From NCBI GenBank assembly GCA_037129695.1, contig JBAXUL010000001.1:4057-68056 (forward strand): 64,000 nucleotides of DNA. Reading direction: 5' to 3'. This stretch comes from Prolixibacteraceae bacterium. GTDB taxonomy: Bacteria; Bacteroidota; Bacteroidia; Bacteroidales; Prolixibacteraceae. This document shows, in pieces, positions 59,036-64,000 of the stretch (position 1 is the stretch's first letter; each line of letters opens with the position of its first letter). The notes under the pieces were generated by a model, which was not told the DNA's origin, did no database searches, and saw nothing but the letters and a program-made list of their open reading frames with translations. A program made the position numbers and the translations under genes.

Positions 59036-61069
59036 ATGATACGAATGAAAAATTCTACCGGAATTGTCACCTTACTTGTGGTGCTTGCATTATTTTCCAA
59101 TTCTGTTGTTGCTCAACAAACTGGAAAACCCGAAGCGTCGAATTACCTGAACAACAGGGCCCCACTGATCTCCAAGCCTTTCATCGAACTTCCCCTTGGA
59201 GCGATTTCCCCGGAAGGTTGGTTGAAAGATCAGCTGATCAAGCAAAAGAATGGCATGACCGGTCACCTGGATGAAATCTACGAAAAGGTGATGGGGCCAC
59301 GGAACGGCTGGCTCGGTGGCGATGGCGATGCCTGGGAGCGGGGACCTTACTGGATCGACGGACTATTGCCGCTGGCCTATCTGCTGAAGGACCAGGAACT
59401 GATAGCGAAGACCAAACCGTGGGTCGAATGGGCACTGCAAAGCCAGCAGCCGGATGGCTATTTCGGTCCGGTGACGGACAGGCCTAACGAACCCGGACTT
59501 CAGCGTGGCAATGCCCACGACTGGTGGCCAAAAATGGTCGTCTTGAAATTTTTGCAGCAATATTATACTGCCACCCAGGATGAAAGAGTGATTAAGCTGA
59601 TGCGTAATTATTTCAAATATCAGTTGACTGAATTGCCAAAAATGCCCTTGAACCACTGGACCCATTGGGGGGAAGACCGTGGTGGCGACAACCTGGCGGT
59701 GGTGTATTGGCTTTACAACCTGACCGGTGACAAATCACTGCTCGAACTGGGTGAATTGATCCACAAGCAGACCGTCAACTGGACGGATGCCTTCCTGACC
59801 GGAAAACTGAGTCAGCCCTGGAGTTTCCATTGTGTCAATGTGGCCCAGGGGATGAAGGAGCCGGGAGTGTATTTTCAGCAGTCAAAGGATGCCAGGTATG
59901 TGGACGCCGTAAAGTCGGGACTCTCTGACTTAAAACAGTTTCATGGTTTTCCGGATGGATTGTACGGAGCCGATGAGATGCTTCATGGAAACAATCCGAC
60001 CCAGGGGTCCGAATTTTGCTCGGCTGTGGAGATGATGTTTTCGATGGAGTCGATTCTTCCGGTTACGGGGGAAGTCGCTTTTGCCGATCAACTTGAAAGG
60101 GTGGCCTTTAACGCTTTGCCGACCCAGGCGACAGATAACTACGACAGCCGGCAGTATTTTCAACAGGTCAACCAGGTGCTGGTTAGCCGGGAAGAGCGAA
60201 ATTTCAATACTGCCTACGAAGGAACAGGACAATTGTTCGGGCCACTTACAGGTTATCCATGCTGTACTTCCAATATGCACCAGGGTTGGCCGAAATTCAC
60301 CCAAAATCTTTGGTACGCCTCTGCTGACCAGGGAATTGCGGCACTTATTTATGCACCTTCAACGGTGAAGGCCAAAGTTGGGAATGGGAAAATTGTTGAA
60401 ATTGCCGAAACCACAGATTATCCTTTCGGTGAAACCATTCGGTTTACTCTTAAAATGGCACAAAAAATCAATTTTGCTTTCCATCTGAGAATCCCCTCCT
60501 GGTGCAAGAGTGGGAGTTTATCTGTAAACGGAATGAAATGGAATGAATCTGCAATATGTAATCTGACAACGGTTTCTCGTGAATGGTCTGATGGTGATGT
60601 AGTTGAACTGGTTTTGCCGATGGAGGTATCCGTGAGCCGCTGGTATGAAAATTCGGCCACAGTAGAACGTGGTCCGCTGGTCTTTGCCCTTAAAATTGGA
60701 GAATCTTGGAAGAAAGTCCAAAATACCGACAAGTACGGTGAATTCTTTTACGAAGTTTGGCCAACTACCCGCTGGAACTATGGCTTGCTGGCTTCCTCAG
60801 TAAAGAATCCAGGGAAAGACTTTGAGGTCGTCAAACGGTCTGTTCCAAAGGACAGTTATCCCTGGAATCCTGAAAATGCTCCGGTTGAAATCAAAACCAA
60901 GGGGGTATTGATCCCTTCATTGGCCTTGTACAACGGCTCCGCCGGACCATTGCCCTACAGCGAACAATACCAGCTGAAAACGGGTGCTCCCGAGGTAATA
61001 TCCTTGTTGCCATACGGTTGCACGACGCTGCGGATTACGGAGTTTCCGGTAGTAAACGTGGGGAAATGA
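59036..61069 (+). CDS. Glycoside hydrolase family 127-like protein (DUF1680, beta-L-arabinofuranosidase family)
   Basis: 677 aa. Signal peptide, (alpha/alpha)6-like N-terminal half, CCTSNMHQGWPKF (Cys-rich catalytic/zinc region typical of GH127), and a beta-sandwich C-terminus. Confidence 0.82.
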   Translation: MIRMKNSTGIVTLLVVLALFSNSVVAQQTGKPEASNYLNNRAPLISKPFIELPLGAISPEGWLKDQLIKQKNGMTGHLDEIYEKVMGPRNGWLGGDGDAWERGPYWIDGLLPLAYLLKDQELIAKTKPWVEWALQSQQPDGYFGPVTDRPNEPGLQRGNAHDWWPKMVVLKFLQQYYTATQDERVIKLMRNYFKYQLTELPKMPLNHWTHWGEDRGGDNLAVVYWLYNLTGDKSLLELGELIHKQTVNWTDAFLTGKLSQPWSFHCVNVAQGMKEPGVYFQQSKDARYVDAVKSGLSDLKQFHGFPDGLYGADEMLHGNNPTQGSEFCSAVEMMFSMESILPVTGEVAFADQLERVAFNALPTQATDNYDSRQYFQQVNQVLVSREERNFNTAYEGTGQLFGPLTGYPCCTSNMHQGWPKFTQNLWYASADQGIAALIYAPSTVKAKVGNGKIVEIAETTDYPFGETIRFTLKMAQKINFAFHLRIPSWCKSGSLSVNGMKWNESAICNLTTVSREWSDGDVVELVLPMEVSVSRWYENSATVERGPLVFALKIGESWKKVQNTDKYGEFFYEVWPTTRWNYGLLASSVKNPGKDFEVVKRSVPKDSYPWNPENAPVEIKTKGVLIPSLALYNGSAGPLPYSEQYQLKTGAPEVISLLPYGCTTLRITEFPVVNVGK

Positions 61070-61201
61070 TCATTTGCTAAGGAGCTGATTGGATGGTAGG
61101 ACATACCGGTTCATGCCTGATTTATTGAATGCGAAATTTAAGAAAAGGCATGATTCTGCGGTAAGAAAAAACAACAAAAGAAATAGCATCAGCCTTGAAA
61201 T

Positions 61202-61333
61202 TCAGTGAGATATCAGGTAAATGAAATCTCCAAAATGAATACCGAGCTGATAAATATAGTAGACAGAAGGAATAACAGCCACAATGGCAAGGGACTTTTT
61301 ATGCCTTTTGATCAAACCAAAGATTTCCTCCAT
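61202..61333 (-). CDS. Possible 43-aa single-TM mini-protein (MEEIFGLIKRHKKSLAIVAVIPSVYYIYQLGIHFGDFIYLISH)
   Basis: ATG...TGA ORF read by hand, below the track cutoff. Same strand as and downstream of the CPBP gene. Hydrophobic core preceded by a basic patch. No other support. Confidence 0.2.
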   Translation of the reverse strand: MEEIFGLIKRHKKSLAIVAVIPSVYYIYQLGIHFGDFIYLISH

Positions 61334-61465
61334 TATTATTTCAGTGTGTTAATTCGTAGATCAAACCTCCTATGGCTTTCCCGAGATTATAAATGGCTAA
61401 TATAAAGATGGTTAATAAATGAGGAAATGTGCAATTTTGCTAACGTGCTAATGTGGGAAAGTTGG

Positions 61466-62002
61466 CTACATCCTGAGCAGTACTATACCAATTGCGATCA
61501 TATTTCGAAGTGCATGAATGAAGACAACAGCGATATAGGCATCGCTCCAATTGTTTTTTCTCTCGTAAAGTATAAAGGCGGTTGATAATATTACTCCCAA
61601 AAAAACACCGAAGAAAATATAGGTAATATTATAGTTGTGAAATAATCCAAAAAGTACTGAAGATATTGCTATTTGAAATGTAATCTTATTTGTTAAAAAT
61701 CTATCGATCAAATAGATTAATCCTGCCTGAAATATTAATGTTTCAATAACCGGAGCAATGATGATGGATTCAATGAGTTTAAAAAAATGAATATCCCCTG
61801 ATGACGCTCTAGGTGGAAGAAAAAGGGCTGCGGGAATATAGAAAATAAAGATCAGATATGACATAAGTAATGATACACCTACAAATGGAGCAAATTGAAG
61901 ATTCCCCCACCAAATTAATTTCCGCTTAATTTCATTTCTGATTTTCATAATTTTAGAAATGTAAATGCTAGCCAAACAAGAATCTTCTTCAGTGGCTAGC
62001 AT
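61466..62002 (-). CDS. CPBP-family (CAAX protease / Abi, bacteriocin-self-immunity-type) intramembrane protein
   Basis: Multi-TM protein with motif 2 FGLFH and motif 3 HALRN. Motif 1 is degenerate (PVIETLIFQ instead of EExxxR). The ATG at 61948 (MKIRNEIKRK...) is probably the true start, because the hairpin at 61967-62000 occupies the longer N-terminus. Confidence 0.8.
   Translation of the reverse strand: MLATEEDSCLASIYISKIMKIRNEIKRKLIWWGNLQFAPFVGVSLLMSYLIFIFYIPAALFLPPRASSGDIHFFKLIESIIIAPVIETLIFQAGLIYLIDRFLTNKITFQIAISSVLFGLFHNYNITYIFFGVFLGVILSTAFILYERKNNWSDAYIAVVFIHALRNMIAIGIVLLRM
61967..62000 (-). promoter_or_regulatory. Intercistronic stem-loop between the peptide gene and the CPBP gene
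   Basis: GCTAGCCA (61967-61974) pairs with TGGCTAGC (61993-62000) in a perfect 8-bp stem. An inner AAGA/TCTT extension is possible. Confidence 0.5.
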
Positions 62003-62009
62003 TCATTTA

Positions 62010-62186
62010 TTAATAACCGTGGCCTGTCCAATTCGGTGGCATTTGCGATCTGTAATAACTAGTGTATGCAGCGGATTTACCAATCAGCCCTTCTCCTGTC
62101 ATGACATCATACACAAGGCAAACCAAATCCCACCATAGATTTCCACCTTCGACTTCTCTCAATTCCATTTCATTTAACTCTTTCAT
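62010..62186 (-). CDS. Double-glycine-leader peptide precursor (bacteriocin-like or signalling peptide), 58 aa
   Basis: Hand-translated: MKELNEMELREVEGG-NLWWDLVCLVYDVMTGEGLIGKSAAYTSYYRSQMPPNWTGHGY, then TAA TAA. The leader fits the LSxxELxxIxGG consensus at positions -15, -12, -8, -7, -4, -2 and -1. Absent from the ORF track because it is shorter than 60 aa. Confidence 0.65.
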   Translation of the reverse strand: MKELNEMELREVEGGNLWWDLVCLVYDVMTGEGLIGKSAAYTSYYRSQMPPNWTGHGY

Positions 62187-62190
62187 TACT

Positions 62191-62198
62191 CAAATTTA
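62191..62198 (-). promoter_or_regulatory. Candidate -7 box (TAAATTTG on the minus strand) immediately upstream of the peptide gene
   Basis: Exact TAnnTTTG match only 4 nt from the ATG at 62186. It would imply a leaderless or near-leaderless transcript, so confidence is low. Confidence 0.25.
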
Positions 62199-62260
62199 TT
62201 TAATTTTAATTTCATAGCCTTGCATTCTTTTCCGTGCTGCAGGTTTTGGCACGCGTAACG

Positions 62261-62596
62261 TTACAAGGTTAAAATTATCCTCGCAGGGTGCACAAAAAAA
62301 GCACGCTGCAAAAAAAGTGCACAATTACCTCCAAAAATTACCTTTGCGTTCTCTTTCGAGATGATTTTCAGTGAATAGCTCAGTTCAATTTCATGGCCAT
62401 TCGAATAGTAATAGGTGCCCCGCTGTCTGGAATAGTCAATTTTTACCCCTATGGTACGGAGTTCGTCCAAATGTTCAAATAGCCTTCTTCGGCTAATGTG
62501 CAGGTAACAGGCAAACTCTTCGGGCGTGCCTGTCTTTTCTGAGCTGATCAGTCGGTTGATCCGAGTGAGGCGTTCCAATTGTTCAAATGATTTCAT
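62261..62596 (-). CDS. Small helix-turn-helix regulator (HTH_11/DeoR-N-like)
   Basis: 111 aa. N-terminal winged-HTH-like segment (RINRLISSEKTGTPEEFACYLHISRRRLFEHLDELR). The C-terminal 37 aa are unusual (see findings). Confidence 0.62.
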   Translation of the reverse strand: MKSFEQLERLTRINRLISSEKTGTPEEFACYLHISRRRLFEHLDELRTIGVKIDYSRQRGTYYYSNGHEIELSYSLKIISKENAKVIFGGNCALFLQRAFFVHPARIILTL

Positions 62597-63023
62597 TGAT
62601 TTGGTATTTCCTTGTTAATCGTAACCAACGGGTTGTCCTGGAAAGCTCCTTTTATAAACTTTCACCCTCTGCAGTAAACGTGCAAATTGAGCGCGGCATG
62701 CGCAATCGGCTAATAATCTGAATATGGTAAAATGTTTATCCATTCGACAGTTGTCCATGGAATGAGATAGACTTTCGCAGGATTCTAAAATTTGAAAGTC
62801 CTTCTCGTAAATTTACGGCAAAAAAACACAAAAGAGAATTTTGAATGATTCAATTCACTGAAAATAGGATTGGGAATACTGATTGTAAGTATCAGGTTTG
62901 CAGGCGAGGATGACCAATTCGCACCAATTAGTTTTCATGTTGCATGATCAGGTGCAATTCCCTTCCATGTAATCCAATTCATGTCATTCGTGGATGAGAT
63001 AATCATAAATCTTGTGGACAGAT

Positions 63024-64000
63024 TTACTGTTTCCGGAACCTGCTTTCCCTGTATATTTTCAGGAAGAGTGCTTCGAAATTGTGAGAAGGAGACAAAGCCT
63101 GTGATAGCACCAGTTTCTGGTCGGGAGAGATCAGGTAAAAAGTTGGAACAGTTTTAAGGAGGTAATCCTTGCGAACTTTCTCCGGTTCAGCGGCAGCGTA
63201 CAATTCCCAGGGATATTTCTTTTCATTCCAGAATTTGGTGGCATCCCCGAAATTTTCGTCCAGCGAAATAGGGATGACAGTTAAAATCGTATTCAGTTTT
63301 TTCTCCATGCCAACCAGCGAGTCCAGTTCGGCCCTGCACTCTTTGCTTGCGCTTTTGAAAAAGGCCAGATAAAGGAATTTTCCGTTCGCACGAAGCGGTA
63401 ATTTCACATTTTGCCTGTTGATCAGTACAAGTCCGGGGGCAGGATTTCCTTCCTGAAGGAAGGTGATCTTTCTGACGATTCCCGGCAGGACTTCTTTCAA
63501 CGGTTCGAAAGTGACTTGAATGGTTGCCTCTTTCAGCCCTTTTGTCATGGCGTTTTTGTCAAATTTGCCGTCATGGAAGCCGTCGTAAAAACATTTACAG
63601 GCCAAAAGCTCCGCTGCCGGCAGATTATATCCGGCCGAAGTCAGTTGATGCACGAATCCGGCAAAATCGCCTTTCAATGCGGGTGCTATGAACTCTTTTT
63701 GATGAAAATCCTGCGATTTGCCAGTGAGATAATCCGAATAAATGGCCTTGAAGAGATGCTGGTAGGCAGGGTGGGAGAGCATCACATTCTTTCCTGCAAA
63801 ATACTTTTGTATGATCTGTTCTTTGGCAGGCTGAAAGATGATCAATTCAAGTTCCCCGTAACTGTAGGTTTTGAGCGCATTCAGATACGGATCTTTCCCG
63901 GCAGGATAGTTTTTTTCCAGTCTTGAAATGATGGCTTTAACAGAATCTGCTGATTTTTTCTGATAGAGATCGATGGTATGGGTTGCCAGTTCCCTGTTGT
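63024..64000 (-). CDS. Thioredoxin-fold (TlpA/AhpC-TSA-like) protein, 5'-truncated by the window edge
   Basis: C-terminal thioredoxin-like region (KFLYLAFFKSASKECRAELDSL...TVPTFYLISPDQK). The reading frame stays open upstream of the TTG at 63845 to position 64000, so the gene is partial. Confidence 0.7.
   Translation of the reverse strand, partial: NRELATHTIDLYQKKSADSVKAIISRLEKNYPAGKDPYLNALKTYSYGELELIIFQPAKEQIIQKYFAGKNVMLSHPAYQHLFKAIYSDYLTGKSQDFHQKEFIAPALKGDFAGFVHQLTSAGYNLPAAELLACKCFYDGFHDGKFDKNAMTKGLKEATIQVTFEPLKEVLPGIVRKITFLQEGNPAPGLVLINRQNVKLPLRANGKFLYLAFFKSASKECRAELDSLVGMEKKLNTILTVIPISLDENFGDATKFWNEKKYPWELYAAAEPEKVRKDYLLKTVPTFYLISPDQKLVLSQALSPSHNFEALFLKIYRESRFRKQ

Follow-up and report, generated by a model that had tools for sequence, protein, structure and literature searches.

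A double-glycine-leader peptide and its dedicated CPBP protein: a conserved mobile module and putative bacteriocin-immunity unit in Bacteroidota

What does a bacterium make with a very short gene whose product begins like an exported peptide, when its neighbors encode a membrane protease homologue and a small regulator? We addressed this question for a cassette of a Prolixibacteraceae bacterium (contig JBAXUL010000001.1, positions 4,057 to 68,056; this 64-kb stretch is termed the window). On the minus strand, the cassette comprises a gene for a peptide with a double-glycine (GG) leader, a gene for a CPBP-family membrane protein directly downstream, and a gene for a small helix-turn-helix (HTH) protein upstream. 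A first-pass annotation, made from the sequence alone, had read it as a producer/immunity or signaling cassette whose exporter is encoded elsewhere.

A peptide gene under purifying selection

The peptide gene lies at 62010..62186 (minus strand) and, read as an open reading frame (ORF), encodes a product of 58 amino acids (aa), MKELNEMELREVEGGNLWWDLVCLVYDVMTGEGLIGKSAAYTSYYRSQMPPNWTGHGY. This product is divided into the leader MKELNEMELREVEGG (62142..62186) and a predicted core of 43 aa (62013..62141), followed by the stop codon at 62010..62012. By our definition, a GG leader spans ∼15 to 25 residues, terminates in GG (or GA/GS), is hydrophobic at positions -4, -7, -12, and -15, and is acidic at -8; MKELNEMELREVEGG corresponds to this definition position by position (M at -15, L at -12, E at -8, L at -7, V at -4, and G at -2 and -1). 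It belongs to the sole GG-leader ORF found when all six frames of the window were searched with a permissive regular expression. The predicted core contains three Trp, five Tyr, and one Cys; here, the first-pass annotation proved exact for the ORF and its sequence, the leader, and the Trp/Tyr-rich core with its one Cys. The monoisotopic mass of the predicted core is 4941.30 Da, and its net charge is -1.2.

The peptide gene is genuine, and purifying selection acts on it. We found seven distinct intact homologues, five in a search of 5.8 billion proteins (P0001 to P0005, 64 to 84% identical to the peptide) and one each in the metagenomic loci L019 and L023, and pairwise dN/dS values for the peptide ranged from 0.10 to 0.28 at dS values of 0.55 to 1.45. 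The reading of the ORF as a gene had been made to depend on such conservation in relatives, and it withstood this check. The leaders of the homologues differ elsewhere but retain L at -12, L at -7, E at -5, V at -4, and the GG end. Within the core, the N-terminal half is variable and the C-terminal stretch TSYYRSQMPxNWTGHGY is nearly invariant; the single Cys is not conserved.

We then compared the peptide with profile hidden Markov models (HMMs). The two matches, PF10439 (16.6 bits for a cutoff of 27.1, over residues 1 to 27 only) and TIGR01847 (13.0 bits for a cutoff of 15.7), are below their cutoffs and come from short models of little power. TIGR04149, one of the models that the first-pass annotation had named for comparison with the leader, gave no match at an E value of ≤10. 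The core showed no similarity to described bacteriocin families in the HMM searches. We propose that the peptides form a new family within a Bacteroidota variant of class II bacteriocin loci, the functions of which we infer from sequence.

Gene calls on six public contigs include the peptide, and the last 12 kb of the window is 100% identical to a metagenome contig in ENA (L001) and 99.9% identical to three others. The NCBI accessions of the CPBP protein (MEI6274382.1, 160 aa) and of the HTH protein (MEI6274383.1, "hypothetical protein") are consecutive, and the NCBI pipeline therefore appears to have skipped the peptide gene that lies between them, which points to an annotation gap. The description of the gene as unannotated thus seems to apply to the NCBI annotation and not to the several public assemblies in which it is called.

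The peptide-CPBP pair as a mobile module

The peptide and CPBP genes form a conserved mobile module. The peptide gene is always found directly upstream of a gene from one small CPBP subfamily, which comprises 8 clusters in the 5.8 billion proteins, a rarity that matches that of the peptide family. At least five unrelated genomic contexts hold the pair. Its neighbors are GH127 and FGE-sulfatase genes in the window, a GFO/IDH oxidoreductase gene in a Prolixibacter metagenome-assembled genome (MAG; L007), a ribonucleotide reductase on one side and a TonB-type receptor on the other in L009/L010 and L019, other GG peptides in L011 to L014, and a GT1 glycosyltransferase and a stand-alone C39 peptidase in L023. 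Across loci, the peptide is 66 to 84% and the CPBP protein ∼75 to 80% identical, and the upstream HTH proteins fall into two clades that are 27% identical. L023 contains the pair without any HTH gene. Of the trio expected to recur in relatives, then, the pair does so, and the HTH gene, which is present in the window and HTH_11-like, is usual and missing from L023. The other GG peptides of these loci are each accompanied by their own, different CPBP.

Intact CPBP genes also occur without the peptide, in L025, L026, and L035 and as the first CPBP copy of L011 and L013. In L020 (1..690), a peptide pseudogene, with stop codons and then the remnant ...SQMPSNWTGHGY*, lies beside an intact CPBP gene (78% identical); this contig is labeled as a Chitinophagaceae MAG. 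The retention of the CPBP gene after loss of the peptide favors an immunity gene over a dedicated maturation enzyme. The cassette (61100..62700) has a GC content of 37%, versus 44% for the whole window, and L009 and L019, which are compositionally near-identical to the window (tetranucleotide r of 0.96 to 0.98), carry the pair at a different chromosomal position. The low GC content and the different position in such close relatives together suggest horizontal movement of the module.

We then analyzed the CPBP protein. Its gene (61466..61948, minus strand) encodes a CPBP/Abi-type intramembrane protease homologue of 160 aa with the motifs PVIETLIFQ, FGLFH, and HALRN. The protein matches PF02517 with 33.2 bits (cutoff, 22.4), as expected from the first-pass annotation, and this domain is carried by all members of the subfamily. 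The maximal ORF extends to 62002 and would encode 178 aa, with an extension that overlaps a conserved hairpin (see below); NCBI and all homologues begin at M19 (nucleotide [nt] 61948), and we corrected the start to this position. The dN/dS values of the CPBP gene are 0.14 to 0.21.

The catalytic positions were mapped by alignment to the canonical CPBPs of neighboring loci (PIVEEVIFRG and PILEELVFRG). Motif 1 aligns as E-T-L-I-F-Q with the canonical E-E-x-x-F-R, so that the second Glu is replaced by Thr and the Arg by Gln, and motifs 2 (FxxxH) and 3 (HxxxN/D) are both present. E69, F100, H104, H145, and N149 are invariant in the CPBP alignment (A6); a PDB sequence search with the CPBP protein gave no match even at an E value of ≤10. 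The ET..Q form of motif 1 is constant throughout the subfamily and is also found in the 29%-identical CPBP of L015, and we therefore regard it as a selected feature and not as decay. Judging from the Rce1 structure, catalysis relies on the first Glu, both His, and the Asn; all four are retained, so an inactive CPBP is not supported. The first-pass annotation was right that motifs 2 and 3 are intact, but it had aligned motif 1 as IE...Q, which misses that the first Glu is kept, and its suggestion that a degenerate motif 1 favors a nonproteolytic role is contradicted by the invariant site residues and by the conservation of ET..Q across the subfamily. Moreover, Kjos and colleagues reportedly found in 2010 that the conserved protease motifs are required for Abi-mediated immunity, and proteolysis and immunity would therefore be compatible. 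From the strict adjacency of the two genes, their comobility, and the orphan copies, we infer that the CPBP protein would protect the producer from the adjacent peptide. In line with this, CAAX/Abi proteins of bacteriocin loci have been reported to give immunity, as far as the work of Kjos et al. (2010) is relayed in PMC9298176. The Arg-to-Gln replacement in motif 1 also occurs in the CAAX protease SilX, for which a role in signal processing has been suggested (PMC9298176).

HTH protein, exporter, and regulatory elements

The HTH gene (62261..62596, minus strand) encodes a protein of 111 aa, in which residues 1 to ∼64 are predicted to form an HTH_11-type winged HTH (wHTH) and residues 91 to 111 are an unconstrained tail. 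HTH_11 (PF08279) scored 20.8 bits with the window protein (cutoff, 25) and matched 101 of 150 representatives of the family, with a best E value of 3e-10. The AlphaFold2 (AF2) model is confident for residues 1 to 64, with three helices and a wing, and shows disorder after residue 88; its best Foldseek matches were the N-terminal wHTH domains of NiaR and BirA, none with an E value of ≤0.001. The family is large, with 931 clusters at an E value of ≤1e-10 in a profile search of 1.84 billion representatives. Nearly all members have 100 to 120 aa, and neither Pfam nor NCBIfam contains a model specific to the family.

We then looked into the genetic context of this family in a metagenome scan, which gave 74 loci (L027 to L100). 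The gene for a peptidase-containing ABC transporter (PCAT) ended at most 400 nt upstream of the HTH gene, on the same strand, in 38 of the 45 loci with enough sequence, and a GG-leader ORF was found within 1.5 kb downstream in 50 of 57. In a controlled subset, such an ORF followed the HTH gene in 32/37 cases, compared with 0/37 antisense and 0/30 upstream control windows. The HTH family is a core part of a locus plan in which genes for a membrane fusion protein (MFP), a PCAT, the HTH protein, and GG peptides succeed each other, and the window contains a satellite copy. Two megabase-scale contigs share this gene order, and one of them is named uncultured Draconibacterium. We also asked whether HTH genes of this family are constantly accompanied by a CPBP and dropped this idea, as a CPBP was detected in only 2 of 23 loci with our own HMM, which has low sensitivity.

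The window itself has no transporter, and the relatives of its HTH gene sit directly after MFP-PCAT pairs, so the orphan cassette with an exporter elsewhere, as proposed in the first-pass annotation, is probably the right picture. The accompanying claim that the window lacks exporter and modification enzymes held for PCATs across the window (tblastn) and for modification enzymes over a narrower range: no radical SAM (rSAM)- or LanM-type gene lies within 10 kb on either side of the cassette, the range scanned on an identical public contig. The leader MKELNEMELREVEGG recurs in identical form, with unrelated cores, directly after genes for an HlyD-type MFP, a PCAT, and an HTH homologue in L015/L016 and on another contig. 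Pfam confirmed the PCAT of L015 (C39 with 108 bits, ABC_membrane, and ABC_tran), and one sample yielded both L015 and the window contig, at a coverage of 15.9 versus 15.4. We examined whether L015 is the exporter locus of the genome of the window and rejected this as unproven because of its composition and the placement of its FtsY (see below). Two further genes lie between the GG peptides and the CPBP of L015 (10775..11991): one for a membrane protein with DUF3267, labeled "putative zincin peptidase," and an ORF of 207 aa without a Pfam match.

The cis elements of the cassette are also conserved. A stem-loop with a 13-bp stem followed by a T-rich stretch lies directly after the peptide stop codon (61962..62005, minus strand). 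Its folding energy is -22.1 kcal/mol, versus -7.6 +/- 2.3 kcal/mol for shuffled sequences, equivalent hairpins were found in 6/6 loci, and RNAalifold gave 11 consensus pairs, of which none was broken, 2 were altered on both sides, and 1 was a G-U pair. This hairpin is likely a terminator/attenuator or an mRNA-stabilizing element between the peptide and CPBP genes; such a hairpin is the usual punctuation that separates a bacteriocin structural gene from downstream genes. Upstream of the peptide gene, the 18-nt element TGTAACGTTACGCGTGCC (62248..62265, minus strand) overlaps the HTH stop codon and contains the perfect 10-bp palindrome GTAACGTTAC. It has a single match in the window, where 0.03 were expected, and was found 5' of GG-peptide genes in 17 fetched loci, sometimes in 2 or 3 copies (three in L012). 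It is confined to a close clade and was present in 4 of the 74 wider metagenomic loci. The palindrome GTAACGTTAC is a plausible candidate operator for the HTH protein. Further downstream, the box TAAATTTG (62191..62198, minus strand), which ends 4 nt before the ATG of the peptide, fits the Bacteroidota -7-type promoter consensus TAnnTTTG and is conserved in the upstream regions of homologous loci; we take it as a putative promoter, from which a leaderless mRNA may arise. A scan for sigma-70 promoters and terminators, which is unsuited to Bacteroidota, performed no better than on shuffled sequences. An Rfam scan of 60500..63500 (E value of ≤1) found no match, so that the hairpin and the cis element belong to no family in Rfam. 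The hairpin and the palindrome, like the orphan CPBPs above and the motif of the HTH protein described below, go beyond the first-pass annotation.

Sequence inspection of the HTH protein revealed a GG-leader-like motif, ...LKIISKENAKVIFGG, at residues ∼75 to 90, with GG at residues 89 and 90 (nt 62327..62332, minus strand); the corresponding motif in L019 is ...LSNKEIQIVNGG. GG or AG is found at the aligned position in 116 of the 150 representatives. Among the 110 representatives that could be anchored, L/V/I occupies -15 in 89, L/I occupies -12 in 91, S/T/N/D occupies -11 in 83, and E/D occupies -8 in 79, four positions on which the anchor placed no constraint. It did partly impose Ile at -4 (90/110) and G/A-G at -2/-1. 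In the AF2 model, the motif lies at the margin of the folded wHTH; some members of the family end exactly at GG. Mean pairwise divergence at codon positions 1/2/3 was 0.21/0.10/0.45 (marine clade) and 0.29/0.17/0.55 (freshwater clade) for the HTH domain, 0.21/0.08/0.48 and 0.39/0.17/0.55 for the motif, and 0.32/0.22/0.38 and 0.37/0.29/0.32 for the tail after GG. This pattern indicates protein-level selection on the domain and the motif, with a tail that is nearly flat. We had considered this tail as an exported signal peptide, which is disfavored by the flat divergence and by the use of two reading frames in close relatives (FLQSAFFVH versus FCRVLFLCT). In the tail (62264..62326, minus strand) and its homologues (P0010 to P0017), the DNA is conserved and the protein is not; the region is T-rich, and the stops fall at 105 to 121 aa. 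Its DNA probably overlaps promoter elements of the peptide gene.

A textbook GG leader would overstate the case for the motif, as an HMM built from 75 local leaders scored it at a median of 0.3 bits and a maximum of 7.4 bits. Haft and colleagues are said to have described in 2010 the NHLP and Nif11 leader families, long-leader PCAT substrates in which the leader derives from a folded protein domain. The HTH protein, alone among the products of the cassette, resembles them in having an N-terminal part of ∼90 residues homologous to a domain, a GG, a short C-terminal stretch, and an adjacent PCAT. Unlike theirs, its part after GG shows no protein constraint and uses two frames, which makes it an unlikely product, and its N-terminal part looks like a working DNA-binding domain. 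That these HTH proteins are transcription factors themselves recognized by the peptide exporter through the motif is a tentative idea, and we consider it rather doubtful. The C39 domain of the PCAT might then dock to or cleave the motif, and GG-peptide production, also from satellite cassettes, might be tied to whether the transporter is present or how loaded it is. Such a secretion-gated switch would be similar in logic to FlgM export. In the literature searched, whose coverage was limited and does not prove novelty, we found no description of HTH proteins carrying GG leaders.

Proposed function and its rivals

We lean toward the view that the cassette encodes a bacteriocin with CPBP immunity under a small wHTH regulator, as a satellite unit of a Bacteroidota-type class II locus, and hold it to be somewhat probable. 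In this proposal, which takes export, the cleavage site, antibacterial activity, immunity, and DNA binding from gene content and conservation, the 58-aa precursor would be made from its own promoter, and the hairpin after its stop codon would limit or stabilize a short transcript, so that less CPBP than peptide would be produced. A PCAT and its HlyD-type partner, encoded elsewhere, would recognize the 15-residue double-glycine leader, cut after Gly15, and export an unmodified, mildly anionic, two-helix peptide of 43 residues with an aromatic C-terminal tail. The exported peptide would act on related bacteria while the adjacent 160-aa CPBP, with its Glu/His/His/Asn set intact, would shield the producer. 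Control of the peptide gene would fall to the small wHTH, which would bind the upstream palindrome GTAACGTTAC.

Several observations weigh against this proposal. All predicted cores of the family are anionic (net charge of -1 to -2, pI of 4.5 to 6.0), and class II bacteriocins are mostly cationic. No bacteriocin-family HMM scored above its threshold with the peptide, the weak matches spanning the leader only. The AF2 model of the peptide, which gives a weak hint of two helices meeting at an invariant TGxG and followed by a disordered tail, is of low confidence (predicted local distance difference test score, 63). A tblastn search of the window with a bona fide PCAT and MFP found no homologue of either and only generic ABC ATPase domains. 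As for L015, its flanks have a GC content of 0.40 to 0.41 and a tetranucleotide r to the window of 0.83 to 0.90, versus 0.93 to 0.95 within the window, and its FtsY clusters with that of a Mariniphaga sp. MAG. Finally, the site residues of the CPBP are intact, and CPBPs of bacteriocin loci have also been described as processing enzymes or receptors (PMC9298176).

The intact site residues bear on two other explanations. The peptide could be a secreted signal (pheromone) that the CPBP matures or senses and for which the HTH protein is the output regulator, in a compact quorum-sensing unit. The anionic core, a nearly invariant C-terminal stretch of 17 residues, as would be expected of a receptor-binding epitope, and the adjacent regulator gene would fit such a unit, as would the implication of the CAAX proteases SilX (Arg to Gln in motif 1) and MroQ in signal-peptide processing (PMC9298176). 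However, the HTH protein consists of a ∼64-residue wHTH and a short tail with no recognizable peptide-binding domain, and the cassette contains neither a kinase nor a receptor. Moreover, one HTH partner can stand in for another (the two clades are 27% identical, and L023 has the pair without any HTH), whereas the peptide and the CPBP are constant. We consider a signal unlikely. Alternatively, the CPBP could be a maturation protease that trims the C-terminal tail or removes the leader, as proposed for SagE, with any immunity residing elsewhere. The invariant Glu69, His104, His145, and Asn149 together with the conserved ET..Q suggest an active, specialized enzyme, its one-to-one pairing with a peptide of nearly invariant C terminus is strict, and SagE and SilX are precedents (PMC9298176). 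Yet a C39 peptidase is already expected to remove a GG leader, and the intact CPBPs found where the peptide is absent or pseudogenized, which fit immunity better than signaling, are also hard to explain for a dedicated maturation enzyme. We regard this explanation, too, as improbable.

The absence of a transporter from the window, the GC content of a cassette that looks acquired, and the decay of the peptide gene in L020 would also be expected of an inert remnant of a lost bacteriocin locus, still readable and no longer exported or functional here. Against such a remnant, the cassette is 99.9 to 100% identical across independent assemblies with its frames intact, all three genes are under purifying selection, including across loci that also lack an adjacent PCAT, and the regulatory hairpin and palindrome are conserved. 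We therefore consider a remnant very unlikely.

We compared the cassette with known systems. The closest in working principle, as far as Kjos et al. (2010) is relayed in PMC9298176, are Firmicute class II bacteriocin operons with Abi/CPBP immunity, such as the plantaricin (pln) and sakacin 23K (skk) loci. In these, too, a small CPBP/Abi membrane protein is encoded directly after a short GG-leader precursor, a genome may hold several peptide-immunity units and orphan immunity genes, and the PCAT exporter can be encoded in a different operon. The present cassette differs in its Gram-negative Bacteroidota host, its anionic core without similarity to described families, and its ET..Q CPBP, and a small wHTH apparently regulates it in place of the pheromone/kinase/response-regulator trio. 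The closest in taxon are the bacteroidetocins (Coyne et al. 2019, PMC6671954; PMC8546649), which have a 15-residue GG leader, with cleavage after GG shown by mass spectrometry (PMC6671954), and a mature part of 42 to 43 residues and also involve a PCAT. They contain four Cys with disulfides, require a neighboring thiol oxidoreductase and a transmembrane (TM) protein, and have no immunity gene (PMC6671954), in contrast to the present family, which has no conserved Cys, has a dedicated CPBP, and shows no sequence similarity to them. An oxidoreductase of the bacteroidetocin type was found in none of the peptide-CPBP loci inspected, so the peptide was not classed with the bacteroidetocins. SagE (streptolysin S), SilX (SilCR), and MroQ (AgrD) are likewise CPBPs in peptide loci with their site residues present (PMC9298176); those systems do not form a strict one-peptide-one-CPBP traveling module, whereas here the CPBP outlives the peptide. 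The peptide also does not belong to the TIGR04149 precursors targeted by rSAM enzymes, as it has no HMM match and no rSAM gene is adjacent on the window contig; a radical SAM gene ∼7 kb from the pair in L009 is CofH-like.

In Bacteroidota, 4,494 unique sequences of GG-leader class II peptides have been predicted (PMC12648112), and the kind of peptide is therefore already known. The novelty here lies in the peptide family and the ET..Q CPBP subfamily dedicated to it, in the conserved cis elements, and in the small HTH family linked to PCATs. The little-studied bacteriocin repertoire of environmental Bacteroidota thereby gains an anionic GG-leader peptide family with no conserved Cys and a dedicated CPBP. 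The pair, the orphan CPBPs, and the one pseudogene amount to a natural experiment on CPBP/Abi immunity, the mechanism of which is still unsolved. The analysis also exposes the MFP-PCAT-small HTH-GG peptide locus plan and a large unnamed HTH family and, if the motif in the HTH protein is functional, would point to a new mechanism that ties gene expression to a system for peptide secretion.

Some additional genes were found around the pair. Downstream of the CPBP gene, gene calls on every contig of the same species include a 43-aa single-pass membrane ORF (61202..61333, minus strand) that may or may not belong to the cassette, and ORFs of ∼40 aa with one TM segment also terminate the L015 (two copies), L022, and L011 loci. 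We rejected this ORF as a conserved fourth component, as it has architecture alone in common with the others, shows no significant sequence similarity to them, and is absent from L007. A ParE-toxin/antitoxin pair lies directly downstream of the peptide-CPBP pair in L009 (10929..11476) and L010 (1150..1679). In L023 (1836..3675), the pair is followed by the gene for a GT1-family glycosyltransferase (UDPGT/EryCIII-like) and then by one for a stand-alone Peptidase_C39 of 165 aa in which the Cys is present; further on, this locus has genes for DUF2007 proteins and for another GG peptide, this one paired with a canonical CPBP. L023 may represent a glycosylated variant of the pathway.

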